Both the position numbers and the translations under genes were made by a program. The notes under the pieces are model-generated. The model did no database searches and was not told the DNA's origin. It was given only the letters and a program-made list of their open reading frames with translations. A DNA stretch of 64,000 nucleotides from an uncultured Candidatus Saccharibacteria bacterium (GTDB lineage: Bacteria > Patescibacteriota > Doudnabacteria > UBA920): positions 147,201 to 211,200 of the forward strand of contig CAZLNP010000001.1 in assembly GCA_964561085.1 (NCBI GenBank), given 5' to 3'. Shown piece by piece: positions 782-14,515 of the stretch; position 1 is the first letter of the stretch; each line of letters starts with the position of its first letter.

Positions 782-3700
782 TTATTCTAATCCGAGAGAA
801 TTATCGGAAGAGGGTTCTTCAGTGGAGCTTGGTTCTTCTGGTTCTGTTGATGGTTCATCTATATTATTACCGCCATCAGTAGGCTCTTCGTCCTGATCTG
901 ACGAACCAGTTGAATCTGTTGAATCGCTCGATTCATCTACTTGGGGTTCATCGTTAGGTTGAGAATCGGAACCATCCGAACTAGAGTCATCGTAGAAATA
1001 TTCATCAGTTTGATCCCCTGCCACTTCACCTGTATCTAGCTCTATCTGATCTCCTGCTGAGATTACCAATCTTGGATTCTTTACCGCCAAAGCTATCCAG
1101 CTAAATGTGAGATCTTGAGGAGCCGGTTGGTTTAAGATAATTCGGAAGCCATTCTGACTCTTTCTTGTAACTAAGTGCTGTACATTACTACCAAACAATA
1201 ACTCAATGTTAGAGTCATCAATAATGTTCATGGCGTCTATCACTTCTTGGTTTACCTCTTCAAGAAGCTGTTCATCTTGCTCTTGGGTAATTGCCACACT
1301 AACAATTGGTTGTTCTAAGTATGAGCGCTCAAATGTTACGTCTACGTATCTGTCGCCTTGTAAAATTTTGGCATAGCCAGCTGTGTCTGAATTAAAGAAC
1401 GGGCGACCAATGAATACAAGGTCAGAAAGCACATCTATACTTCTGCCAGAGCTTCCAATCGTCAGCACTTGTAAGCCATCTGCCACAATGTTCGGAGAAA
1501 TTACTTCGAACGTTGCACTTAGTCTATCTGTAAGAATTTGAGAAGATACACCGACATCCTTCTTTTGAGTCTTCATTTGCTTTAGGAAAGCAAGGATTCT
1601 ATCTTGTTTAGTTTCTCTGAGTTCTAAATCGCCGCTTTCAAGAAGAACAGAATCTTCGTCTGGCATTTCTTCTAGGCCCATTTCTGCAATAGCGGCGTCC
1701 ATTTCTTCCATCAGCTGTTCGATTGGTAAACCGTTAAAGCTGCCAAGTTCTACGAACATCATGACTTTGCCACACATTTCCAAATCAACACTTGGCTCTT
1801 CTACTACTTCGTCAGCATCTGCAGTAGTTTCTTCGGTTTCACTTGTGGATTCTTCTGTTGACTCATTTGAAAGATCTTCAGATTCATTATTAGTTTGAAT
1901 TGAACACACTTCTTGCTGTTCTGCAGACAGGCTAGAATCAAGAGCTCTTCCAATTGCTAGCCCAGAACTTGTCGCACGCATAGCATGGCCTTCAATAGAG
2001 GAAGCTGTTAAGTAATCCCCTGGTTGTACCGGACCATTTTCATCGCTAAACTTTACAGGAATACGTCCAGTCAATGCTATTGGATAACCATCTGCTAATC
2101 TTTCTCCCAAAATAATTGCCGGTCTACTCGCCACCACACCAAGCACTCTCTGATTATTTTCACCAGTGTAAAGTACTACGTCGTCACCGTCACCGTTTGG
2201 ATCGATGGAAACTACATCCCCCGCTTGTAGGTTATTAGTAGAGTAATAGTACTCAGCCAAATCGGCTCCACCAGTGAATCCAACTTCTGTACCCAAACTA
2301 CCAACCGCTGTAACACCATCCAAAACTAACTCGTTTCTAATGTTATATAGCTGGTTTGTTATATAATCTAATCCTTGTCCTAACTGAACGTTTTCTGCTT
2401 GGGACCACATATGCTCATCAGTAGCCATTAATAGAGAGCGCTTAGAAAGATCTATGGAACGAATATCATCTGAGTCAGAATCCGTATCTGTCCATTCAGT
2501 TCCATGATCATCAGTCTTTTTAGCGTCGCCGTGGAAAATATCTGCAATTACGTTTGGACCTGCTTGGTGGTTATAACAAGTTACGCCACCAGTACCAGTT
2601 GTACTGTCTGTACCAACACAAAGCAATCTTGCTTCTCCGAGTAAAGCTTTGTTCGTTAATCCAATTGCAACTACAGCATTAGAATCGCCATATAGAGCTT
2701 CTGGGTCGACCTCGAAGTCCGTAGTTGTGTCTGGAGTAACATCAAATGGAATTGCCACTGTCATTGTGTCCGTGGTATTAGAAATTACACGACGTGTTTG
2801 GCCGGCACCAGTACCGCTGGTCAAGTTAACAATTAAACCTGCAAATTCATTCGGGAACCAAGTTTCTCCCGTGTCTGTAATTGTTGTTGAGGTAGCAGCT
2901 GTAGCGTTGTCTACTGTAATTACACGCTTGTTTACCAAAGGACGAGCATCGTTAAATAGACGGCGTTGTTGAGCATTACTTACTGTGGCAAGTGTTGTAG
3001 TTTGCACCGCAAATGTAAAGTCATCGATAGAACCGTTCCAGAAGTTTGAGCCAGCTGCACAGTTCACAGAACCTGCACATGAAGCACCAAGGCTAACAAT
3101 TTGGCTTCCGTCAAAGGTCGTAGCTAAGGCTGTAGCAGTACTTAAGTTAATTGCTTGCCCATCTAGATACACGTCAACGTCACCCGCGTTTGTGCGAGAA
3201 ATTGTTATCATATGCCATTGGTTATCATTATACAATTGAGATGTTGTTGCGGTAATGTCATAGGTGGTGCCTAAAGTCCAGCTGGCATCATCATCTACTC
3301 CGACACGGATTGTTCCAGTAGTTGTCATAGTAGCATCTACACAACCTGTTGCTGCTGTACCCGCTGCGACATAACATTTACTAAAGAGTACTTCAGGTGC
3401 TCCAGGGAGACTAGTAGAATGTTTAAACCACATACTGACCGTCCACCCAACGGTAGATATATTGAATGCCGTATCTACGTCACAAGTACCGTCCGAGGTT
3501 GTATCAGAACATAAGTATCCAGCGCCACCTAAGTCAACAGCTTTACCACGAACACCACTCACCCCTTGTGTGTAGGTTCCTTTGTAAGTCATATCATTGT
3601 CTACAATAGTGTCGCTGTCTGCAGTTGTTGTTGTGTCATCCAAAGGAAGAGCAACGTCAATATACTGATGCTTCATCATACTTTGACGATTTGTATCGAA

Positions 3701-6700
3701 CCACTTTACCCAGCCTGTTGCTGTTGTAGTGTGGCCATGCAATTCAGTCAAACCTAGACTGTGTCCAACATAAATTAAATCTTCTGTTTCTAGGGCAGAT
3801 GATGCACGTTCAATTACATCAATCGCGTCTGGTGCACCTACTATCATGTTTGGTGTAGTTTTAGAAAGTGCTGGTGTTGTAGATTGATCCCATACCGCGC
3901 TGTAAGCTCCATTAATTTCATTAATTTTGTCTGCATCAAAGTTATCCCAACGTTCCAATTGGTCCAGAGTAGTATTTAGAGCGTACATTCTACCAGTCTT
4001 AGTCAAATGCACAGCAGTGTAATCATTATCCGTTGCATCGGAATATTGAATCAGCTGACTTGTAGCCATGTTAATAACAGTAAGGCCAGAATTTGTTGCC
4101 AATGCAATATAAGTACCTCCATACCCTGGAGTTAAGTTAGTAGCAGCACCAATAGTAGACGCAGTGATTGTAATGTTAGGGTTAACAACAAACACATCAT
4201 TAATTGTTTCCCAACCAGCAATGGTACCAGTTACTGCAATGTCTAAGTTGGTATTATTATCTACGTTATAATTCACAGCCCCGTTACGACTTCCAATTCC
4301 AACGTCTGCACCAGAACGATCTGTAGCATCGTAGTTCCACATACGATCGTTAATAAAGTCGAAAGCGTAAAGCCCGTCACCCGCTCCATTAGAACCGTCG
4401 GTTGTACCAACATAGATAACACCATTCATAGCGGTTACGCTGGAAGGATCATTGCTAGTATCTACACCCAAAGCGTACCCACTAGCGTTTTGGCTAAACT
4501 TCATCCACAATGTATTGTTAGAAGTATCAAAAATATACAAAGCATTAGCAGTTACAGCCAAGGTTGCTTTTCTTGGAAAAGAGGAAGCACCACAACGATC
4601 GTCAGTTGAAATGTTACAAATTGAACCGACTGCGTCTTTTGTTTCGTTATACCAAGATAGTCTTTCTGTTGTTGCCCAGTCTACCCAGCGACCACCATCA
4701 CTGTCAGCGGTAGTATCATACAAGAACACATCTTTTACACCAGCTAGTGCTGTTAAGTTTCTAGCACCAATAGTAGTGATGTCGCCGTATACATCTAAGT
4801 CCCCTCTATTAATAGCTTCACCAATTTGAAGCATGCTAGTAGGAGCTGCTGTTCCAATACCAACATAACCATTCATGAATGCAGCGGCATACTCTATGCC
4901 AGCACCCGAGCCAGCATCTATGTATGCACCATAACTTGTTACATTTGTAGTTGATGCACCAGTTATTTTTAAGCCAGCATAAGTACAAGCACCAGTAGCA
5001 CAAGCAGTCATAGTAGGAGCTTCAATATTTAAACCATTAATTTGTTTAGTTCCAGCGCCAGATGTGTTAACAGTAATTGCTAGATTCAAACCATTAGTGA
5101 TTGATTCACTTGAAGCGTTAGTAGAGGCGTTAGTATATGTCAAATTTACTAGACTGCCAGTTTGAGTTGCACCTGGGTCATAAGAAGCGCCAGTAACATT
5201 AATTGCGTTTCCTCGAGTCAATACAGTACCCATGTTAATCTCTATAACTTTTCCAGTAGTTAAAGAAGTGGCATTAAATGTTGCGAGCCTGCCAGTGGCA
5301 GTAGAGTTGGCTGTTAAGTTTAACAATCCACCTGATCCAGTGTAAGCACCAGAAGCTTGAAGTTGAACAATGCCGTTAGACACAGAACCAGTTGTTGCAG
5401 ATGTAACTTTAAAAGCAGACCCTGAAGTAAGCCCTGTTCCTGAAGAAGTGACAGTTAAGTTATCTGTTGTAGTTGTTGCACCCCAATCCAAAGTTTGAAC
5501 AGTTGTACCCATCGCAACAGCGCCATTACCTGCAGCATCGCCGATTGTATCGAAAGTAGTAGAGCCGCCACCAGCGATTGTACAATCTGTACGAGTTGAA
5601 CCAGCGTTGTCTACACAAGCAACTCCTGCACCTGTAAAGTTCAAGGTAGCGCGCTGTGTTAAGCTACCAGCTTCATCTTGAATAGTGGTGTATCCACCAC
5701 CAGCTGAACAAGCACCCCAAAGAATTGTAGTAGCATTTGCTTTCAAACATTCTGTATCTGAACCACGAGCCAAACGGGTTGAGTTAGTGCCATTATGGTA
5801 CAGTAAGTCACCATTAGTTGTGAGTTGAGATAGATTGTTAATTGCATTCTGCGATGTTGATGCTCCAGTACCACCATCTGCAACTGCAATATCAGTTCCG
5901 TTCCATATGCCTGTAGTAACAGTGCCATTGTTAGCTGTAACTACAAGACCGTTAAAGCTAGTTGCTCCAGTGATTGCACCAGACAGTGCAAGTGAACTCA
6001 ATGTTCCGACGCTCGTCAAAGAAGAAGCAGTCACATTAGCAGCTAAGGTTGACCCTGAAATATCTGCTGCTGCGTTAACAGTTATATTAGCATTTGGGAA
6101 TGTGTAAGTTTTATCTGATCCTGTTAAGTCTGCGGTTGTAAAAATACCAGCGAAAGTCGCACCAGTTCCAGTAGTTTGAGGTTTAATATTGATTGTGTCT
6201 GTATTAGCAGTTGTAGATGAGGCTACAATTGAACCTGTAGTCGTAGCAATAAGATTAACATTCTGAGCGGCTCCACCTGCGGTAAATGATAGAGCACCAG
6301 TTCCGGTGATTGAACCATTCGCTGTTCCAGTACCGCCAAGCGAAACTGGAAGCTGTGCATTCACTGACCATGTTCCAGAAGAAATACTTGGTACACCTGT
6401 TGATGCTGAAGTGTTAATTCCAGTACCACCGTAGGTACCAGCAATAGCAGTCCCATTCCAAACACCAGTTGTAATTGTTCCGATGGAAACTAAAGATGAC
6501 AAAGTTGTCACACCTGATGTAATTAAAGTTCCTGTGGTTGGAAGTGTCACGTTTGTAGCACCAGTAGTTGTAAGTGTAAGAGCGTTTGCTCCCGCTGTTG
6601 TAAATGCTGCCGCTGTATTAATGTTGCCGCCAAGGGTAATTGTGTTGCTACCATTGTTTACTCCTGTGCCACCATAAGTTGAGCCGACCACTGTTCCCTG

Positions 6701-7558
6701 CCAAGCTCCTGCAGTAACAACTCCGCTTGCGTTTACACTAAATGCATTTGCGGTTCCAGAAGTTAATGTTCCAGATACATCTACATTTCCTGTTATAGCT
6801 AAATCACTTCCAGAAGGTGCAATTGTTAAATCGCCTCCGGATGAGGTTGTGAAGGAAGAATAGTTTGCTGCGTCGTAGCCAACTCTTAATTGTTCAGTTG
6901 TAGATGTGACATGCAATTTTGCAGAAGTAGTGGCTGTTCCAATTCCTACATTACCACCAGTTAAGTTCCAACCAGCTCCGCTTCCTACAGAAGTCAAAGT
7001 TGTGAATCCGTTAGATGCTACTCCCAAAGTTGCGCGGTTAGAGCCATCATAATTAAATGCTGCTTGGGTGGCGGTATTAGTAATGTCCACCAGACCTGTG
7101 CCCTTAAGATTGCTTGCCAAGAAAGCGACTGGAACTGTTCCAATCTTCTTTCGTGGAGTCATTTCTCCATCCCAACTAGGTGTCCCTGTTCCTCCGATGT
7201 TTACACTCAAAAATAAAGTCTGATTAAAATCTAGACTACCAAAAGGGTTAACCTCTCCCAACATCACACTAAACACCCCATTAGTGACTGTCACTTTATC
7301 TCCAGCAGTACGAGTTTCGGTCCAAAGAAGACTTCCTCCACTTACAGCGTCGTAAAGTTTGAACTCCATGTTATAGTCACCATCCGCAACAGCGACATTG
7401 CTACCATTTGTTAGTTTTCCCTGGTAGTTAATCTCTGCATTATAAGCAGCAATGGCCGAACGTTCATAATTGAAAGTAGATGCTACTGTAGCCAATACAA
7501 CTAGAAGGCCTATTAACGCGAAAGCTATGCGCACGGTAGGAGTAAAGAGTTTAATCAT
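782..7558 (-). CDS. Giant surface protein (about 2,258 aa). N-terminal signal/anchor helix, long Thr/Gly/Ser/Asn-rich repeat region, central LamG/ConA-like lectin-fold domain, C-terminal acidic Asp/Glu/Ser/Pro-rich tail.
   Basis: Uninterrupted 6.8 kb ORF. The ORF track starts at 7591 (MRKCEQ...). The internal Met at 7558 (MIKLFTPTVRIAFALIGLLVVLATVAS) gives a typical signal/anchor and avoids overlap with the upstream HTH gene. LamG-like signature '...WTVSMWFKH...NQWHMITISRTNAGDVDVYLDGQ' is encoded around 3050-3450. Confidence 0.8.
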   Translation of the reverse strand: MIKLFTPTVRIAFALIGLLVVLATVASTFNYERSAIAAYNAEINYQGKLTNGSNVAVADGDYNMEFKLYDAVSGGSLLWTETRTAGDKVTVTNGVFSVMLGEVNPFGSLDFNQTLFLSVNIGGTGTPSWDGEMTPRKKIGTVPVAFLASNLKGTGLVDITNTATQAAFNYDGSNRATLGVASNGFTTLTSVGSGAGWNLTGGNVGIGTATTSAKLHVTSTTEQLRVGYDAANYSSFTTSSGGDLTIAPSGSDLAITGNVDVSGTLTSGTANAFSVNASGVVTAGAWQGTVVGSTYGGTGVNNGSNTITLGGNINTAAAFTTAGANALTLTTTGATNVTLPTTGTLITSGVTTLSSLVSIGTITTGVWNGTAIAGTYGGTGINTSASTGVPSISSGTWSVNAQLPVSLGGTGTANGSITGTGALSFTAGGAAQNVNLIATTTGSIVASSTTANTDTINIKPQTTGTGATFAGIFTTADLTGSDKTYTFPNANITVNAAADISGSTLAANVTASSLTSVGTLSSLALSGAITGATSFNGLVVTANNGTVTTGIWNGTDIAVADGGTGASTSQNAINNLSQLTTNGDLLYHNGTNSTRLARGSDTECLKANATTILWGACSAGGGYTTIQDEAGSLTQRATLNFTGAGVACVDNAGSTRTDCTIAGGGSTTFDTIGDAAGNGAVAMGTTVQTLDWGATTTTDNLTVTSSGTGLTSGSAFKVTSATTGSVSNGIVQLQASGAYTGSGGLLNLTANSTATGRLATFNATSLTTGKVIEINMGTVLTRGNAINVTGASYDPGATQTGSLVNLTYTNASTNASSESITNGLNLAITVNTSGAGTKQINGLNIEAPTMTACATGACTYAGLKITGASTTNVTSYGAYIDAGSGAGIEYAAAFMNGYVGIGTAAPTSMLQIGEAINRGDLDVYGDITTIGARNLTALAGVKDVFLYDTTADSDGGRWVDWATTERLSWYNETKDAVGSICNISTDDRCGASSFPRKATLAVTANALYIFDTSNNTLWMKFSQNASGYALGVDTSNDPSSVTAMNGVIYVGTTDGSNGAGDGLYAFDFINDRMWNYDATDRSGADVGIGSRNGAVNYNVDNNTNLDIAVTGTIAGWETINDVFVVNPNITITASTIGAATNLTPGYGGTYIALATNSGLTVINMATSQLIQYSDATDNDYTAVHLTKTGRMYALNTTLDQLERWDNFDADKINEINGAYSAVWDQSTTPALSKTTPNMIVGAPDAIDVIERASSALETEDLIYVGHSLGLTELHGHTTTATGWVKWFDTNRQSMMKHQYIDVALPLDDTTTTADSDTIVDNDMTYKGTYTQGVSGVRGKAVDLGGAGYLCSDTTSDGTCDVDTAFNISTVGWTVSMWFKHSTSLPGAPEVLFSKCYVAAGTAATGCVDATMTTTGTIRVGVDDDASWTLGTTYDITATTSQLYNDNQWHMITISRTNAGDVDVYLDGQAINLSTATALATTFDGSQIVSLGASCAGSVNCAAGSNFWNGSIDDFTFAVQTTTLATVSNAQQRRLFNDARPLVNKRVITVDNATAATSTTITDTGETWFPNEFAGLIVNLTSGTGAGQTRRVISNTTDTMTVAIPFDVTPDTTTDFEVDPEALYGDSNAVVAIGLTNKALLGEARLLCVGTDSTTGTGGVTCYNHQAGPNVIADIFHGDAKKTDDHGTEWTDTDSDSDDIRSIDLSKRSLLMATDEHMWSQAENVQLGQGLDYITNQLYNIRNELVLDGVTAVGSLGTEVGFTGGADLAEYYYSTNNLQAGDVVSIDPNGDGDDVVLYTGENNQRVLGVVASRPAIILGERLADGYPIALTGRIPVKFSDENGPVQPGDYLTASSIEGHAMRATSSGLAIGRALDSSLSAEQQEVCSIQTNNESEDLSNESTEESTSETEETTADADEVVEEPSVDLEMCGKVMMFVELGSFNGLPIEQLMEEMDAAIAEMGLEEMPDEDSVLLESGDLELRETKQDRILAFLKQMKTQKKDVGVSSQILTDRLSATFEVISPNIVADGLQVLTIGSSGRSIDVLSDLVFIGRPFFNSDTAGYAKILQGDRYVDVTFERSYLEQPIVSVAITQEQDEQLLEEVNQEVIDAMNIIDDSNIELLFGSNVQHLVTRKSQNGFRIILNQPAPQDLTFSWIALAVKNPRLVISAGDQIELDTGEVAGDQTDEYFYDDSSSDGSDSQPNDEPQVDESSDSTDSTGSSDQDEEPTDGGNNIDEPSTEPEEPSSTEEPSSDNSLGLE

Positions 7559-7802
7559 ACACAACCTCCGCTTTTGTTCGCATTTGCGCACTGCGAGAAT
7601 GCTTCACTTTTTGTTGTTTCAAATACAATAAAACCGCCCCACGTGTAGTGAGCCAGTTTCTAGCTATCTTCATTGCTTTTAGATGTCCTGTTCTCGCTCT
7701 TAAACTCAAGTACTCGGCTGAGTATGGAGTAAAGTTTGCAGCTTCAGAGATTGAGATTAAATCTCCTGAGGCTAAAAAGGACTTCTTTTCCCTTTCTGAC
7801 AT
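7551..7802 (-). CDS. Small helix-turn-helix DNA-binding protein (83 aa, excisionase/MerR-like HTH), immediately upstream of the giant protein gene.
   Basis: ORF with the segment 'ISISEAANFTPYSAEYLSLRARTGHLKAMKIARNWLTTRGAV', which resembles an excisionase-family HTH. Its stop codon lies 2-4 nt from the proposed giant-gene start. Confidence 0.5.
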   Translation of the reverse strand: MSEREKKSFLASGDLISISEAANFTPYSAEYLSLRARTGHLKAMKIARNWLTTRGAVLLYLKQQKVKHSRSAQMRTKAEVVYD

Positions 7803-7940
7803 ATTGTATTTTAGTTTTTGTTTCTTGTATTGATCTTCGCTTTTTTACCGATGATCAATATTTGCTATCCGATACTTTTTCTATATCAAGTATAGCAGTT
7901 TTATTGCGTTTTGTCAATGCTATATTAAAAAAGAGTTGGA

Positions 7941-9284
7941 TTATTCCAACTCTTTTTTCTCTTCATTGCTTCGCAAGGAAATTTGTTTTCTAATTCTTAC
8001 TACTCTCCAAAAATGTACTGTCACAATTACTGCGGCGAGGCCCACTGTTCCTATGATAACGGGGTTCGGAAGTCCTTCCTGTCCCGATTCTTCCCTGCTA
8101 TCCACTTCTGCCTGCGCTTCATTAATTACTTCAACAGAGCCCGAAACCTTTTCAAGTATTAATTTTGTCGAATTAAATACTGTGACAACTAATGCATAGT
8201 TTTTTGGATTTTTAAACGCTGGGGTTTTTACCCTATACTCACCGCTCTCTTTATCGTAAAAAAACAGATAGGTCGAGCTAGAAGATTTTTTTTCAGGATC
8301 GGCAACAGTCAACGTTAAGAATGACCCATCTTCAGGTAGACGACTCCTCGGGATTGAAATTTCTAAACCTTGTCCTACAGGAATCACTGGGTTGTCTAAA
8401 TCCAAAGTAAGACCATCGCGATAGGAAAAATTAAAATCTTTAAACAGACTTGGAATCAGTGGTGGGTTCTTTACCGAAGGAAGTTGTATGTCTACTGCAG
8501 GAGCTGTTGGATCTGTGTTGACTTCATCACTGCTGGCGATCATTGTATACGAAACGGATCCGGAAGAATAATTACCAGTAGTGTCCTTAGAGAACGCTGT
8601 ATAAAAATAAATTACACCGGGCACTACATTGTCATCATAAAAATTACTTCCAAGACCTTCATAGATCACAGCTCCATTTAAAGGATCTAAAGGAAAAAAC
8701 TTTTCTGATTTTACTATTCTAACTAAATTAAAATCTGATTCTGTTGGATTGTTCCAACTTAAATGAATATGTTTTAATTGAGGAGTTGCAGAAAACTCAC
8801 TAACATTGCTGGGTGGTTCTGTGTCTGGTGGGCTAAGTGTTACGAATACATCTTGATACTTACTCTCGGCACCATTTGTCCCGGTAGAAATTATTTGAAA
8901 GTAGTATCTTTTATTTGGTAATAGATCTGAAATTAGAGCTGAATGATTCTTGGTATATTGTTCTCCAGCAACAGTGCCATCTCTATAGTCAGGGTTAGTG
9001 CCCCAAGAAACGCGGGACAACGCTAAGTCTTGTGTGACCCAATTTATTGTCGCCGAATCGTAAGAAGTTGTTACTGCAACTCTACTTATTTTTGGAGGAC
9101 TAACCGTTGGAGGCGCCCCTCCTCCTGTAGATCCTGGCACAGGATCAACTCCGGTATTACTAGGCTGACCAACCTGAACACCACTACTTGCTGCATAGAT
9201 TAAAGCAGGCGTACTTAAAAATATTGAGCAAGTAAAAATCCCCAACGAAAATAAAGTAAAGATTCGGCTGATTTTGAATTTCAT
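7941..9284 (-). CDS. Membrane-anchored surface protein with two fibronectin type III-like domains (447 aa). N-terminal signal peptide, C-terminal TM helix and charged tail.
   Basis: Signal 'MKFKISRIFTLFSLGIFTCSIFLSTPALIYA'. FN3-like blocks ('ATINWVTQ...YYFQIISTGTNGAES', 'HIHLSWNNPTE...YFYTAFSKDTTGN'). C-terminal 'IIGTVGLAAVIVTVHFWRVVRIRKQ'. Confidence 0.65.
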   Translation of the reverse strand: MKFKISRIFTLFSLGIFTCSIFLSTPALIYAASSGVQVGQPSNTGVDPVPGSTGGGAPPTVSPPKISRVAVTTSYDSATINWVTQDLALSRVSWGTNPDYRDGTVAGEQYTKNHSALISDLLPNKRYYFQIISTGTNGAESKYQDVFVTLSPPDTEPPSNVSEFSATPQLKHIHLSWNNPTESDFNLVRIVKSEKFFPLDPLNGAVIYEGLGSNFYDDNVVPGVIYFYTAFSKDTTGNYSSGSVSYTMIASSDEVNTDPTAPAVDIQLPSVKNPPLIPSLFKDFNFSYRDGLTLDLDNPVIPVGQGLEISIPRSRLPEDGSFLTLTVADPEKKSSSSTYLFFYDKESGEYRVKTPAFKNPKNYALVVTVFNSTKLILEKVSGSVEVINEAQAEVDSREESGQEGLPNPVIIGTVGLAAVIVTVHFWRVVRIRKQISLRSNEEKKELE

Positions 9285-9293
9285 AACTAAGTT

Positions 9294-10097
9294 TTATAGA
9301 GCTACTGCAGTGACGGTAATATTAGCTTCGTAATTTCCATTAGGTTGGATATGACTTGAACCTACTTCAGCCTGCATCTTCACAGTAGTAGTAGTCCCCG
9401 ACGGATGATTCCCAGTTGTTCGTTCAGCAATTTGTTGGTCAGAAGTAGTAAGCTTGTCCCAACATCGATCTGTAGTATCACTTCCCCCTATAGCATCACA
9501 CGTAGCACCATTATCTTTGTATCTTTGAATAATATCTACTCCTTCTGGAGTAAATCCGTACTCGCTATCTGCTGAGGCTACTGACCATAAATAGTCCGGC
9601 GCAGCTCCACTTGTTGTATAGTCAGCAAAATCACTGGAAGCGCTTCGCAATGCTGGATTAGTATCGGCTTTAATTGTTAGCGAATATCCTGCTGGATTAT
9701 CTGTAATGACTGTCCAAACAGTTGAACCGCTACCGACTCCACCAGAAACTCCAGAGATTGCTGGACTCATTGTTACATCGCTTCCACTACTAATAGCTAA
9801 GTATGTGAGTTGTGCGCCTATGAATCCTGCGTTTATTCCATAGCTGCCACTCGCAGAGTCTCCAGTAGCTATCTCGCCAACTGTATCGAACAAACCATAA
9901 GAGGTAGATGATCCATCTTGCCCCCCAACGTTAATTGAATCTAACGGAATCTTATATGCTGTGCCAGCCATTTGTGCATGGATATGGGTCGCAGTTCCCA
10001 CTGACACAGACATCAACAAAAAAAACAGCACAGCAAACCTGAAAGTTTTGCCTGCACTGATTTTTGTTATTAAAATTTTAATTTTTTCTAAATTCAT
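9294..10097 (-). CDS. Secreted protein (267 aa), WxL-like. Paralog of the 11186-11836 gene.
   Basis: Signal peptide. Motif 'GSTVWTVITDNPAGYSLTIKADTNPALRS' is shared with its paralog and resembles the proximal WxL motif ([LI]TWT[LV]xDxP). Conserved C-terminus '...YEANITVTAVAL'. Confidence 0.55.
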   Translation of the reverse strand: MNLEKIKILITKISAGKTFRFAVLFFLLMSVSVGTATHIHAQMAGTAYKIPLDSINVGGQDGSSTSYGLFDTVGEIATGDSASGSYGINAGFIGAQLTYLAISSGSDVTMSPAISGVSGGVGSGSTVWTVITDNPAGYSLTIKADTNPALRSASSDFADYTTSGAAPDYLWSVASADSEYGFTPEGVDIIQRYKDNGATCDAIGGSDTTDRCWDKLTTSDQQIAERTTGNHPSGTTTTVKMQAEVGSSHIQPNGNYEANITVTAVAL

Positions 10098-10139
10098 CCT
10101 AATCGCTTACTAATGATACTGGCCAGCGGTTAGTGATTG

Positions 10140-11111
10140 CTATTTTTTACGTTTGATTTCAAATGAGCGCACTAACCGACGAAGGATAAAGGCTACCACA
10201 ATAATTGCTGCCAAGAAACCTACTACTATTTTCCAAGGTAGCACCCAAAAAGAAATAGTCTTTACATCAACTTCGTCTGGTGACTCCCTGTAGCCGCGGT
10301 CGATTGTTGCTGTTGCAGTATAACGACCAAAGGCGAAGTCTGATTCCCAAGTAACTACAGCTGCGCGTAGAGAGTCGGGCAAACTAAAGAAAGGGGCTAC
10401 TTCAATATCTTTAACACTACGTCCGAGCATGTTCTTAATTTGAACTTTACCGCTTGGAGTTAAGTGGACACTACTGTTATTTTCGTAAAGTAATTCGAAA
10501 TTAAAGGGTCCTTTTTCATGGAAAGCTTTATCATTTTCCATACGGAAATCTGTAAGCAATGAAGACTCTTTTACCTTGCCTTCAACACGAACAAAATACA
10601 AAGCACCGATTCTAGAAATAGTTTTTGCTTTGTTATCTAGTTCAGCATCGTCATCTGAAGATGGTGCGCTAGAAACCAAAACTGAACCATAGTGACCGCC
10701 TGGCTCTGCTTCTGCTGGAATAGTCACTACTACATCCAAAACGGCACGCTGTTTTGGTTTAAGTTTAAACGAATCCTTCTCTGGCTTGATGTAATCCTTT
10801 AAAGAATATGGGCCTTTGTCATTTCCTAAAAGAACTACAGGATTCTTTAAATCTTTCGAGCCCGTGAAGTCTTCTACGCTAACCGTAAAAGTTTGTTCTC
10901 GGTCGGTTCTGTTAACAACAGATAAACTTCGAGTTGCTTTCTCCCCTCTCTTTAAAAAGAGTTCTGTCTTAGCAGGGCCAACTACGAAGTCGTCACGAAT
11001 TTCCGCGGAAGTGTCTGTAATAGTAATCGCATAAGCAGTTGGAGCTAATCCAAAAGTTAATATTGAAATACTTATTAATACAAACCAACGGTTGAGGTTG
11101 AATTTTTTCAT
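10140..11111 (-). CDS. Signal-peptide protein with C-terminal TM anchor and KRKK tail (about 323 aa). Architecture resembles the DUF916/DUF3324-type anchored partner of WxL (Csc) loci.
   Basis: The ORF track starts at 11132. The internal Met 'MKKFNLNRWFVLISISILTFGLAPTAYA' at 11111 gives a clean signal peptide. C-terminus 'VVGFLAAIIVVAFILRRLVRSFEIKRKK'. Flanked by the two WxL-like paralogs. Confidence 0.55.
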   Translation of the reverse strand: MKKFNLNRWFVLISISILTFGLAPTAYAITITDTSAEIRDDFVVGPAKTELFLKRGEKATRSLSVVNRTDREQTFTVSVEDFTGSKDLKNPVVLLGNDKGPYSLKDYIKPEKDSFKLKPKQRAVLDVVVTIPAEAEPGGHYGSVLVSSAPSSDDDAELDNKAKTISRIGALYFVRVEGKVKESSLLTDFRMENDKAFHEKGPFNFELLYENNSSVHLTPSGKVQIKNMLGRSVKDIEVAPFFSLPDSLRAAVVTWESDFAFGRYTATATIDRGYRESPDEVDVKTISFWVLPWKIVVGFLAAIIVVAFILRRLVRSFEIKRKK

Positions 11112-11185
11112 CTTAGTATCAGAATACCACACTTTATGAGTGTGGTATAGTGGAAAATTATATTTAGTCTGCTTTGTATCTCAAC

Positions 11186-11836
11186 TTATAAAGTAGTAGC
11201 TGTAGCAGTGATTGTTGCTGAGTAAGAACCAGCTACTGCGAAAGTTGTATCTTGTTCAGTTGCTACACACATGTTAGCTACTGTACCAGATGTAGTTGTT
11301 GGAGCTGCTGCTGTAGCGATTTGGTCAGCTGAGCCAGTCAAATCGAAGTCTCTCCATTTTAGACCAGCGCTTGGTACGTCTGCACCAGCGATACAATCAG
11401 CATCTGTGCCATATGTAGAAGTGTTAACATCTGTGCCGAATGCTGAGAAACCAAATTCTACATTAGACGCAGGAACTGACCATGTTTCAGGTGTTTCAGA
11501 TACTGTAGGAGTGTAGTCAACGATGTTACCACCGCCACCAGAACGGGACAGTGCAGGGGCACTTGAAGCATGAAGAGTCAAAGTATACCCGTCATCGTTG
11601 TTTGTGATTACAGTCCAAGCTGCGGTGCCTACTGCTGTATTTTGAGAAGTAGACAATGCAGTCATTGTAATGTCTGAAGGTGAGCTTAGAGAAATCTCTG
11701 AAGTTACCGATTGGTTTACTACTACGTCGTCTGTATCTGTAGCAGCACCTGTGATCCTTGGTTCTACAAACGCAAATAGTCCTGAAACCATAACAGCGCT
11801 AGCAACCAACAAAATAAAGTTATTCTTTAAGTTCAT
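11186..11836 (-). CDS. Secreted protein (216 aa), WxL-like. Paralog of the 9294-10097 gene.
   Basis: Signal peptide 'MNLKNNFILLVASAVMVSGLFAFVEP'. Motif 'GTAAWTVITNNDDGYTLTLHASSAPALSRS'. C-terminus '...YSATITATATTL'. Clear paralogy with the 267-aa protein. Confidence 0.55.
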   Translation of the reverse strand: MNLKNNFILLVASAVMVSGLFAFVEPRITGAATDTDDVVVNQSVTSEISLSSPSDITMTALSTSQNTAVGTAAWTVITNNDDGYTLTLHASSAPALSRSGGGGNIVDYTPTVSETPETWSVPASNVEFGFSAFGTDVNTSTYGTDADCIAGADVPSAGLKWRDFDLTGSADQIATAAAPTTTSGTVANMCVATEQDTTFAVAGSYSATITATATTL

Positions 11837-12028
11837 TGTCTTTTATTAATTATTTTAGTTTATTTTTGTATCAACTGCCCTATTTAAGTAAAGTTGGGCA
11901 ACGTTTTCTTAACTTGTAATGATATTATAGCATGGTTTTACTGTTTTGTAAAGCGCAAACATCTTAATTTAATTTCTTCTTCATATTATATGAAGAGATA
12001 TGCTATTATTTATATAGTAAAGTACTAC

Positions 12029-13039
12029 ATGGAAACAAAAAAACATCCTCACTTACCAGTATTTATATTATTGTCCTTAACCTTCATTGGATTCGTACTA
12101 TTTACTTCGTACTTTTCCTATCGCCAGAGGGCGGATGATTCTATTGTTAAAGTTGGGTTAAAATGGCTTCATAGCGCCCAATTTGCAGGTATGTACGTAG
12201 CCAAAGAACAGAAGATGTATGAGGATGGTGGTCTGACAGTGGAATTCAATGAACCAACTGAAGACAAGAGATCTACTATCGATTCACTTCTCTCTGGTGA
12301 GAATGACTACGTAATAGTATCTGCTCTAGAACTACTGGATCACGTTGCCCAGAACGACCCCGTAAAGGCTGTGGCGGTTATTTATCAGGAAACTCCTACA
12401 GTTATCGCCTCTTTACCAGAAAGTGGTATAAATAAGCCTGAGGATTTGCGTAATAAAGTCCTAGGGACTACCAGAAATGAAAATTACTCTTTTTCTTTGT
12501 ACAAATTCCTAGGAAATAAGTACAAAGTCCCAGTAAATAGCATGATTTTTAAAAATATAGGGTTCAATGCTATAGACGACTTAATTAACGGAGAAGTAGA
12601 TGCAGTCAGCATCTATCGCACCAAGCTATACTTACCAAAAGATTACCCAGAAACAAACTTTAGCTTAATAAAGCCCGAGGATTACGACATTCACATGTAT
12701 AGTGATGTAATTGTGACCACCAATGAACTAATAGAAAAAAGACCGGAACAAGTCCAGGCTTTTGTAAACGCTACAATAAAAGGATGGGAGTACGCGTTAG
12801 ATTACAGAGATGAGGCAATCGATATAACTATGCCATACACATCTGGCAGACAACGTGAAGAAGAATTTCAAAAGCAAATACTTACAGCTAGCGCTCCCCT
12901 AATTAGAACAGACGGAATTGAGCATGTTGGAGAGATGAGCACTGGGAGATGGCTTGAAATGTATTATTTATACAAAACAAGTGTACTAGTTTCTGAATTC
13001 GATATAGCAAAAGCGTACACAACAGAATTCCTCCCCTAG
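12029..13039 (+). CDS. NMT1/SsuA/TauA-like substrate-binding protein (ABC-type nitrate/sulfonate/bicarbonate family) with an N-terminal TM anchor. No cognate permease or ATPase is adjacent.
   Basis: The ORF track starts at 11894. The internal Met at 12029 (METKKHPHLPVFILLSLTFIGFVLF) gives a TM anchor. The body resembles periplasmic-binding fold type 2 NMT1/THI5-like proteins. Confidence 0.65.
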   Translation: METKKHPHLPVFILLSLTFIGFVLFTSYFSYRQRADDSIVKVGLKWLHSAQFAGMYVAKEQKMYEDGGLTVEFNEPTEDKRSTIDSLLSGENDYVIVSALELLDHVAQNDPVKAVAVIYQETPTVIASLPESGINKPEDLRNKVLGTTRNENYSFSLYKFLGNKYKVPVNSMIFKNIGFNAIDDLINGEVDAVSIYRTKLYLPKDYPETNFSLIKPEDYDIHMYSDVIVTTNELIEKRPEQVQAFVNATIKGWEYALDYRDEAIDITMPYTSGRQREEEFQKQILTASAPLIRTDGIEHVGEMSTGRWLEMYYLYKTSVLVSEFDIAKAYTTEFLP

Positions 13040-13363: not shown

Positions 13364-14515
13364 TTATGCTGCTGATTTTTTAAATAAGTCTGCCTCGTTT
13401 AATTGCTTTATATTCTGAGATAATACAACTACCTTATTATACTCCATATAGGCCACTACAACCCCTAGAAATAGCATCCCCCCAAGAATTTGCATAATGA
13501 GCGTTCTATTTGAAAATGGGGAAGAAGTAGATGAGCCTGCAGCTACAGGTTCTTCGCTAGATACAATCTCGAAAGTATCTGTAGAGGTAGCGATTAAATC
13601 CTCAGAGGGAACTGCGACTGTTAATGTATATTCACCCAATGGTAGAGTTGTGGTGGTAAGGAATGATTTAGAGTACTCTAGAGCACCTTTAACTGCCATG
13701 GTTTCCGAATTTTCAGAAACAATATCTTCATCTTTGTTTGTAATAGTGTATTGTACTTCTACGTCGACAGCTTTATCGGGACTACTAAAGTTAATAAATT
13801 TAATATCTGCAACGATAGGATCACCAACTAATACTTCTTTGGACTCACTATTAATTACAGCTCTTACATCGAACAACGCTCCCCCGTTTCCAAGTTGTGG
13901 CGTGTTATTAAATTTAGGAGCTAATGGCTCTTCATTCTCTCCTAACACAATTTCAAACAAGAATGAGTCAGTGGCCAATACCTTACTCGACACACCTCTT
14001 GAAACTTTAGCAGTTAAGGTATAAGTTCCTGGTTTTAGCGGAACAGTTGATTCCCAGGTCCAGTTACCATTAGTGTCCGCTAATGATTTTCCCGTTACAT
14101 TGTTTACCCCAAAAAGGTTCAATGCTACATTCCCATCAGGAACATTAGTATGTCCTATAAATTTAGGAAATTGATTTCTAAAAACAAAGATTGCCTGGAC
14201 CTCTCCATCTTGTAAGATATATCTTTGCTGGATAGAGTCACCTGGGATTACTGTAATCTCTGGAGTTAAATCAGGAATAGAGGTTTCTTCATTTGAGGCC
14301 GTGCTTGCCCTGCTACTATTCGAGATCACTTTAACGTCTGGTTCGACTGGGTGGTCTGCCAACAAAATGGGACGATTAGAGTTTTCGGCACTCACTGAGG
14401 TCAAAGCAATTCCAAGTACCCAAGCAAAAAATGCCACTAAAATTACACTAGTGACAAAAGTGACTGCATGATAGCTCCGCCTAATATGGTGATGTGCTAA
14501 ACCTGTTTGTTTCAT
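13364..14515 (-). CDS. Hypothetical surface protein anchored at both ends (383 aa). N-terminal TM, beta-rich Ig-like middle, C-terminal TM.
   Basis: 'VTFVTSVILVAFFAWVLGIALTSVSA' near the N-terminus and 'IMQILGGMLFLGVVVAYMEY' near the C-terminus. Confidence 0.5.
   Translation of the reverse strand: MKQTGLAHHHIRRSYHAVTFVTSVILVAFFAWVLGIALTSVSAENSNRPILLADHPVEPDVKVISNSSRASTASNEETSIPDLTPEITVIPGDSIQQRYILQDGEVQAIFVFRNQFPKFIGHTNVPDGNVALNLFGVNNVTGKSLADTNGNWTWESTVPLKPGTYTLTAKVSRGVSSKVLATDSFLFEIVLGENEEPLAPKFNNTPQLGNGGALFDVRAVINSESKEVLVGDPIVADIKFINFSSPDKAVDVEVQYTITNKDEDIVSENSETMAVKGALEYSKSFLTTTTLPLGEYTLTVAVPSEDLIATSTDTFEIVSSEEPVAAGSSTSSPFSNRTLIMQILGGMLFLGVVVAYMEYNKVVVLSQNIKQLNEADLFKKSAA

Follow-up and report, generated by a model that had tools for sequence, protein, structure and literature searches.

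What does the group of genes for secreted proteins at 9294-11836 assemble, and to which known system is it related? These genes lie in the window, a stretch of 64,000 nucleotides (nt) of contig CAZLNP010000001.1 (assembly GCA_964561085.1), deposited as an uncultured Candidatus Saccharibacteria bacterium. A preliminary description presented them as a Csc/WxL-like triad in which two paralogous secreted proteins stand around a protein with a signal peptide and a transmembrane (TM) segment. The three open reading frames (ORFs) of this triad were confirmed at the positions given there. Overall, after analyzing the sequences, the family profiles and the structure models, we suggest that the locus probably builds an usher-less surface fibre linked by donor strands, as a minimal relative of the Pam pilus. 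The triad is too narrow as a unit, since a fourth gene (R), a small helix-turn-helix (HTH)-like ORF and a giant gene belong to the same conserved neighbourhood. The genes that we call U, C, D and R are separated by spacers of 53, 42 and 9 nt and most likely form a four-gene operon, with the conserved giant surface protein adjoining. Their products, given in amino acids (aa) and with immunoglobulin (Ig)-like and fibronectin type III (FnIII) domains where present, are as follows:

11186-11836, minus strand: U, 216 aa, a secreted, pilin-like, single-domain protein (ORF list)
10140-11111, minus strand: C, 323 aa from an ATG start, membrane-anchored, with two Ig-like domains (ORF list)
10140-11132, minus strand: C from an alternative GTG start, 330 aa (ORF list)
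9294-10097, minus strand: D, 267 aa, secreted, PamT-like (ORF list)
7941-9284, minus strand: R, 447 aa, tandem FnIII domains and a TM segment, PamR-like (ORF list and Pfam)

A survey that took one genome from each species found relatives of C in 328 genomes. Over 83 loci, the arrangement paralogue-C-paralogue-R on one strand was nearly invariant, with R directly after D in 71 of them. Because C has relatives in so many genomes and the gene order is conserved, a chance arrangement is excluded. The 80 C loci that were fetched all came from metagenome-assembled genomes of Patescibacteria, the Candidate Phyla Radiation (CPR), or from generically labelled records. The carriers with names all fall in the Parcubacteria group, as Nealson-, Falkow-, Taylor-, Zambryski-, Yonath-, Kaiser-, Campbell-, Nomura- and Buchananbacteria, Paceibacteria and Minisyncoccia. 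In a word-indexed search, 244 relatives of C and 257 of D were retrieved at 90% clustering, and the D profile collected 2,164 clusters at 50% identity from 1.84 billion proteins. The best 150 matches of this last search were close relatives, with no bridge to PamT or WxL among them.

The middle protein C is a true homologue of WxLIP (DUF916-DUF3324-TM), probably over its full length, as judged from the Pfam, hhalign and PDB profile results and from the AlphaFold2 (AF2) model with its Foldseek matches. It has an N-terminal hydrophobic helix at residues 6-21, and in its AF2 model (pLDDT 90.9) two beta-sandwich domains precede a TM helix (residues 293-316), which is followed by RRLVRSFEIKRKK. The tail beyond the TM helix is basic, so that the signal, C-terminal TM and basic tail described earlier are all present. 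Pfam PF06030 (DUF916/WxLIP_PGBD) matched C at 26.5 bits against a cut-off of 27.3 (E 7e-6) and matched 59 of the 65 members of its family. The proposed DUF916/DUF3324 likeness holds for DUF916 as remote homology; PF11797 (DUF3324) was found by Pfam in 0 of the 65 members. When C was aligned by hhalign with five WxLIPs drawn from annotated Firmicute clusters, the probability was 97.6% (E 3.8e-12) over 248 columns, covering both domains and the TM helix. Moreover, the C family profile retrieved EfmWxLIP1 from the PDB sequences at E 1e-8; with U, C or D as a single query sequence, the PDB gave nothing useful.

The fold of C places it near two kinds of protein at once. In Foldseek, the best matches of the C model were the Enterococcus faecium WxLIP structures 9i1y and 9i25 (E about 1e-12), with RbmA second and the chaperones CfaA, FimC, Caf1M, CsuC, SafB, DraB and CupB2 after it (E 1e-9 to 1e-7). 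The preliminary description had treated a PapD-like chaperone fold as incompatible with a WxLIP relationship. This was a false dichotomy, in that the model matches WxLIP best and the PapD, FimC, Caf1M, CfaA and CsuC chaperones next; the WxLIP-type and PapD-type folds of C are not alternatives. A strand of WxLIP is predicted to fill a gap in the WxL beta-sandwich, in a paper that mentions neither chaperones nor ushers (PMC10599100). This predicted strand filling is donor-strand complementation. A PapD-like two-domain chaperone fold with a C-terminal TM helix, which is a feature of the Pam pilus, is present in C, and we regard C as a putative membrane-tethered assembly chaperone.

The two proteins that flank C are paralogues, as first proposed. 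The pairwise alignment of U and D by BLASTP gave 33% identity over 175 aa (E 2e-15), and their family profiles aligned in hhalign with a probability of 100% (E 1e-53). The block common to both (GTAAWTVITNNDDGYTLTL in U, GSTVWTVITDNPAGYSLTI in D) and the C-termini ATITATATTL and ANITVTAVAL are present in the two proteins, as had been noticed, and are kept across both families. Between the end of the last beta-strand and the C-terminus there are 3-4 residues in 64/78 U proteins and 3 in 53/74 D proteins, and about 90% of U and D members have exactly one cysteine pair. U is built of a signal peptide, a conserved N-terminal strand (DDVVVNQSV), an Ig-like domain with one cysteine pair and the C-terminal last strand. 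D has a signal peptide, an N-terminal module of about 55 aa and an Ig-like domain of the U type. The signal peptides of all module proteins were judged by sequence alone. No further gene of the U/D type was found in the 64-kb window.

In the AF2 model of D, the Ig-like domain (residues 100-267) was predicted with pLDDT above 90 and residues 37-94 with pLDDT below 50. The PDB matches of this model were weak (E at least 0.013), and about 26 of the top 30 were donor-strand pilins, including the PapG pilin domain, FimA, CfaB, PapE and CsuA/B. The last of these (probability 0.98, TM-score 0.62) was the best structural match by TM-score. The locus resembles the chaperone-usher systems (Fim, Pap, Caf1, CFA/I and Csu) in the two-domain Ig-like chaperone fold of C, in the pilin-like incomplete-Ig fold of D, closest to CsuA/B by TM-score, and in subunits that are single domains, extended at the N-terminus and closing with an F-like strand at the C-terminus. 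It differs from them in having no usher (about 80 loci), no outer membrane, a chaperone tethered to the membrane and a dedicated TM anchor protein, and no similarity to them was detected at the sequence level.

The N-terminal module of D (residues 43-99; 9801-9971) is the best-conserved part of the protein, yet it is poorly folded by AF2. Three repeats, each about 16 aa long and of the form S..Y.(I/L)..(D/T)..G, make it up, with the consensus MsStnY.IqsDSiN.GGg.S.StnY..edT.GEvaTG.SsStsY.L.AGYqQM, and it is confined to proteins in the D position. This module may fold on binding or oligomerisation only.

Are U and D then WxL proteins, as the preliminary description had supposed? Pfam PF13731 (WxL) matched 0 of 60 D and 0 of 61 U members, that is 0/121, and no WxL chain was retrieved from the PDB by the D family profile. 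We also aligned U and D by hhalign with a thin WxL profile of six annotated proteins and a deep one of 120 PF13731 proteins. Only one strand was aligned, VTTDxxAGYxLxI in U/D with VQVTDxRGTxxGWxLxV in WxL, at P 0.002-0.016 and a probability of at most 13%; reversed controls gave P 0.1-0.5. Three features correspond in the same order, namely a first strand, a G[Y/W]xL strand and a C-terminal strand; these correspondences are suggestive and fall short of homology. The shared block had been likened to the proximal motif ([LI]TWT[LV]xDxP), which is the wrong motif: its counterpart, if any, would be the first motif, GWxLSV, and not the C-terminal one. The tryptophan of the second WxL motif is replaced, as had been noted, but that of the first motif is gone as well, and the two positions hold Y, and V or A, in U and D. 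With the signal of both the thin and the deep profile marginal, we rejected, on the evidence at hand, the membership of U and D in the WxL family.

A better-fitting system, overlooked when WxL/Csc was named as the closest one, is the Pam pilus, which is specific to CPR and was described in a 2026 preprint on Ca. Mycosynbacter amalyticus (Troman et al., bioRxiv 10.64898/2026.03.03.709456). In that work, the Pam pilins are linked through donor-strand exchange, PamC and PamD are PapD-like chaperones with a C-terminal TM segment, PamT is a single-domain tip protein, and PamR combines FnIII with a TM segment and has an N-terminal strand by which, as the authors proposed, the fibre is ended and anchored. 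Near the pam operons lies a gene for a tail-fibre-like protein. The pilins were found mainly in Saccharimonadia and Microgenomatia; Paceibacteria, WxL and DUF916 are unmentioned there (bioRxiv 10.64898/2026.03.03.709456).

One tie between the two systems is the D protein. The NCBIfam model NF058579 (PamT) matched 59 of the 60 members of the D family, with a best E of 6e-15. The match is collinear, spanning the signal peptide and the N-terminal module and extending into the Ig-like domain, it is nearly full length in some members, and the region best matched is the N-terminal module. The C-terminus of one member was matched by the Pam pilin C-terminal-domain model as well. Beyond this homology of D to the single-domain PamT, the locus shares with Pam a CPR/Patescibacteria host, the absence of an usher, a PapD-like chaperone with a C-terminal TM segment (C), an FnIII and TM anchor with an N-terminal strand (R), paired cysteines in the pilins and a tail-fibre-like gene nearby. 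There are also differences. Pam has two chaperones and the present locus one. The PamA/B/E pilins consist of an N-terminal domain, a linker strand and a truncated Ig-like C-terminal domain, whereas U is a single Ig-like domain; its putative donor strand is N-terminal, as in classical chaperone-usher pilins and unlike the linker strand of PamA/B/E. In addition, the module described here occurs in Parcubacteria/Paceibacteria. The module would work like a Pam pilus but lacks two Pam features, namely two-domain pilins and a D protein that scores near the PamT cut-off; with the WxL clusters it shares a WxLIP-homologous core protein, but the WxL-domain test failed. We therefore assign the module as a minimal variant, in Parcubacteria/Paceibacteria, among donor-strand assemblies with a membrane-anchored chaperone.

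The fourth protein, R, provides a further line of evidence. Behind its signal peptide it has a short strand resembling that of U, then a linker, a pair of FnIII domains, another beta domain and, at the C-terminus, a TM segment with a basic tail. Pfam assigned it to PF16656/fn3, and its family profile matched FnIII pairs in the PDB with E down to 1.6e-17. At the mature N-terminus of U, immediately ahead of the Ig-like domain, lies a strand of the form A.(T/E)D.(F/V).V(T/S)(Q/L).V. The same strand is found at the mature N-terminus of R, where a Pro/Thr/Gly- or Cys-rich linker follows instead of a domain. A strict regular expression for this strand matched 64/78 U, 38/72 R and 1/74 D, with 0/78 and 8/72 in the reversed controls for U and R. 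Lineage-specific variants of the strand (...TLNV, EDQF.V.Q) appear jointly in U and R of one genome. The mean identity between the U and R strands was 5.8/12 within a genome compared with 3.9 +/- 0.26 in shuffled pairings, and 0/5000 shuffles reached the observed value; we take this co-variation as supportive and not conclusive because phylogeny was uncontrolled. Such a distribution, in which D lacks the strand that U and R have in common, is as predicted for a head-to-tail chain of U that starts with a non-donating D and ends with R. By its architecture, R may be regarded as a counterpart of PamR and as a putative fibre terminator and membrane anchor.

From these data we propose a model of how the fibre would be assembled. 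In a monoderm CPR cell, all four proteins would be exported by Sec. C would be held in the membrane by its C-terminal helix, and its Ig-like domains would cap the incomplete Ig-like domain of U or D by lending it a beta-strand, as in the PapD-type chaperone mechanism and as also predicted for WxLIP and WxL. D, which is PamT-like and lacks a U-type donor strand, would form the distal end, that is, the tip. U would then polymerise, each N-terminal strand being inserted into the groove of the preceding subunit. The strand of R would be inserted last, at which point growth would stop and the fibre would be tied to the membrane. Polymerisation in place of a closed, finite assembly, D-(U)n-R as the order of subunits, and any part that the giant protein may play are inferred.

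Several points weigh against a Pam-like fibre. D scored 29.9 bits and its family 26-54 bits against the PamT equivalog cut-off of 240; with scores so far below the cut-off, D is a distant relative of PamT and not PamT itself. The NCBIfam Pam models found essentially nothing in the U, C and R families, the C and R families having no match to the Pam-specific models, and NF058581 (Pam_pilin_C) gave sporadic weak matches in 2/60 D and 1/61 U. No two-domain pilin of the PamA/B/E type is encoded in the operon. The pilin matches of the D model are non-significant one by one. The strict strand motif was matched in just 38 of the 72 R proteins, and R of the window (SGVQVGQPS) has a loose version of it; the co-variation test between U and R, as said, ignores phylogeny. 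Strand insertion by C, U and R is likewise something that we infer. Finally, the promoter and terminator calls given below are pattern matches, and the overall number of promoter-like sites is no higher than in shuffled sequences.

The alternative that survives best is a finite surface complex of the WxL/Csc type, which we consider unlikely. Here, C would be the permanent membrane-bound partner that holds U and D without forming a long fibre, possibly as R-U-D or as C-U and C-D, and the complex would bind the wall or a host and perhaps present the giant adhesin. A WxL cluster has been defined by at least one WxLIP and at least two WxL proteins within a few genes (Hassan et al. 2023), and two small secreted paralogues around a WxLIP-like protein match this layout, as the preliminary description had pointed out. 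The likeness extends further: C is homologous to WxLIP in sequence and structure over both domains and the TM helix, the two small paralogous secreted proteins are beta-sandwiches that end in a conserved C-terminal beta-strand, and a large surface protein completes the set, so that the locus mirrors the WxL clusters (PMC10599100). Natural fusions of C with D in many lineages fit a stable 1:1 pairing better than transient chaperoning, and the three motif correspondences of U and D with WxL occur in order, with a marginal hhalign signal above that of the reversed controls. However, U and D are not detectable as WxL domains, lying outside the WxL domain model and lacking both tryptophans, and D is related to the pilus component PamT. 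The N-terminal strand present in U and R, and not in D, is predicted by a head-to-tail chain with a terminator. The locus also differs from the WxL/Csc loci of Bacillota in its CPR host, in the failure of Pfam to detect PF11797 in the C family, and in having neither an LPXTG protein nor a sortase, the TM protein R serving as the putative anchor. Moreover, WxLIP may itself be a chaperone, in which case the difference from a fibre would perhaps be one of length alone.

It is very improbable that U and D self-assemble without a chaperone into fibres like those of TasA or camelysin, with C and R as unrelated surface proteins. The TasA fibre 8aur ranks third among the fold matches of the D model (E 0.016); this match is weak and stands amid many chaperone-usher pilins. 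Pfam found no TasA/Peptidase_M73 match in U or D, and no SipW/TasA signature was seen in the module. Nearly every locus has C strictly placed between U and D, and C is homologous to a protein that binds its neighbouring subunits. We give hardly any credence to a pilus of the classical chaperone-usher, the sortase-dependent or the type IV kind. The folds of C, which is chaperone-like, and of D, which is pilin-like, would speak for it, but neither the operon nor its relatives encode an usher-sized outer-membrane protein, a sortase, an LPXTG motif or a prepilin-type signal, and C is anchored in the membrane instead of being soluble in a periplasm.

Returning to the donor-strand fibre, we speculate, tentatively and with more doubt than conviction, that the U-C-D-R locus, the Pam pilus of Saccharimonadia and the WxL/Csc loci of Firmicutes could descend from a single ancient family of surface assemblies that single-membrane bacteria build without an usher. 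In such a family, a membrane-anchored WxLIP/PapD-like chaperone would cap incomplete Ig-like subunits, and an envelope-anchored protein would donate a subunit-type strand to end the chain. This anchor might be R or PamR in CPR and a small LPXTG protein in Firmicutes. If this is true, the function of WxL clusters would be the assembly of donor-strand fibres or complexes, and the WxL domain would have diverged from a pilin domain. The function of the WxL clusters, which occur in lactic acid bacteria, enterococci and Listeria, has been unresolved for about 20 years. The operon is, to our knowledge, the first sequence-level bridge between WxL/WxLIP clusters and the Pam pilus, and it points to one mechanism that both could use, in which a membrane-anchored chaperone complements the subunits with a donor strand. 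CPR/Patescibacteria live attached to other microbes, by means about which little is known. As a compact set of four genes, a fibre operon of this kind would be a simple and tractable candidate for attachment to the host in the largest class of CPR; its breadth is seen in the 328 species-level genomes with relatives and in the more than 2,000 protein clusters of the D family. The link between WxL and Pam is made in neither of the source papers (PMC10599100; bioRxiv 10.64898/2026.03.03.709456), and our literature search found no paper that names DUF916 together with Patescibacteria.

In Firmicute WxL clusters, the mature N-terminus of a small LPXTG protein resembles the N-terminal strand of a neighbouring WxL protein, in parallel to the strand shared by U and R. 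Examples are AYDSNGVTSF with EYTSNGAITF and VETEGTIGFTG with VTTNGNIEFTP. The loci compared are L008:2182-2550 with the L008 WxL genes and L094:3626-3994 with 3999-4790, and also L004, L007, L090 and L091. We did not retain this as a case of mimicry. Two Enterococcus clusters show it clearly to the eye, but over five clusters it was not significant, as 7/120 permutations gave a sum at least as high as observed and the scores were no higher than those of a reversed-sequence control.

The remaining features of the neighbourhood lie around and downstream of the operon:

782-7558, minus strand: giant tail-fibre-like surface protein, secreted, 2,258 aa (ORF list)
782-7591, minus strand: longest version of the giant ORF, 2,269 aa (ORF list)
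7551-7802, minus strand: small HTH-like ORF of 83 aa in the interval between R and the giant gene (ORF list; HTH by eye)
11924-11952, minus strand: promoter-like site TTTACA-17-TATAAT, TG-extended, upstream of U (consensus scan, 11/12 positions)
7927-7958: hairpin with a 14-bp palindrome that overlaps the R stop codon at 7941-7943 (consensus scan)
7889-7917: second promoter-like site, upstream of the HTH-like ORF and the giant gene (consensus scan)

The giant gene adjoins the operon in most relatives and is next in line at all loci with enough flank. Orthologues were found in L001, L009, L011-L013 and other loci. The mature N-terminus of this family is strongly conserved, AA(I/F)N.QINYQGKLTN.SNVAVADGTYNMEFKLY...LWTETRT, and its C-terminal region is acidic and of low complexity. 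The L001 orthologue carries Peptidase_S74, which is the intramolecular chaperone domain of tail spikes; neither the giant protein nor the HTH-like ORF of the window had a match in Pfam or NCBIfam. The giant protein contains no U/D domain, no N-terminal module of D and no U-type donor strand, so that a physical link to the fibre is not supported; its link to the operon is positional.

The 83-aa ORF and the 5′ end of the longest giant ORF overlap, and in some 20 related loci (phmmer, 20 loci) the small ORF has the same position, after R and ahead of the giant gene. Judged by eye, it may be an HTH protein of the excisionase/MerR type and act as a regulator. The hairpin at 7927-7958 has a T-run in the spacer beyond R and, as a pattern match, is likely the terminator of the U-C-D-R unit. 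A terminator-like hairpin was also found beyond the giant gene by the consensus scan.

The module lies downstream of rpoB-rpoC in the window, and in the relative L001 it follows directly after rpoC. In the window, unlike L001, a gene for an NMT1/THI5-like solute-binding protein (PF09084, E 3e-38; 11894-13039, plus strand) sits between the module and rpoBC and is divergent from U. Further on, at 13364-14515 on the minus strand, is a gene for a 383-aa protein with hydrophobic segments at both termini and Ig-like domains (weak Big_13 and Y_Y_Y matches), and with a weak Pfam match to DUF3324/WxLIP_HBD (E 0.002). This protein was rejected as a second WxLIP-like component, with hhalign probabilities of 34% against WxLIPs and 6% against the C family.

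The closest relatives of the window (C up to 83% identity; L009-L016 and others) are third-party annotation (TPA) metagenome bins labelled 'uncultured Candidatus Saccharibacteria bacterium'. All the specifically named relatives belong to the Parcubacteria group, and the Saccharibacteria label is probably a generic placeholder.

Right behind the hydrophobic core of its signal peptide, the U family has an 'EP' dipeptide (U residues 25-26; 11759-11764) that is kept in at least 90% of members and was not seen in D, C or R. From the sequence pattern, it may be a special processing site.

Variant forms of C and D occur in other genomes. Fusions of C with D, as gene-called, measure 520-577 aa (P0245, P0249, P0258 and others). 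Large forms with extra N-terminal domains, which are FnIII repeats in P0324 (1205 aa), end in a C-terminal D-type domain (also P0247, 2187 aa) and follow the same plan as the large WxL proteins. In P0264, P0251 and P0303, an insert of about 200 aa stands between the D N-terminal module and the Ig-like domain.

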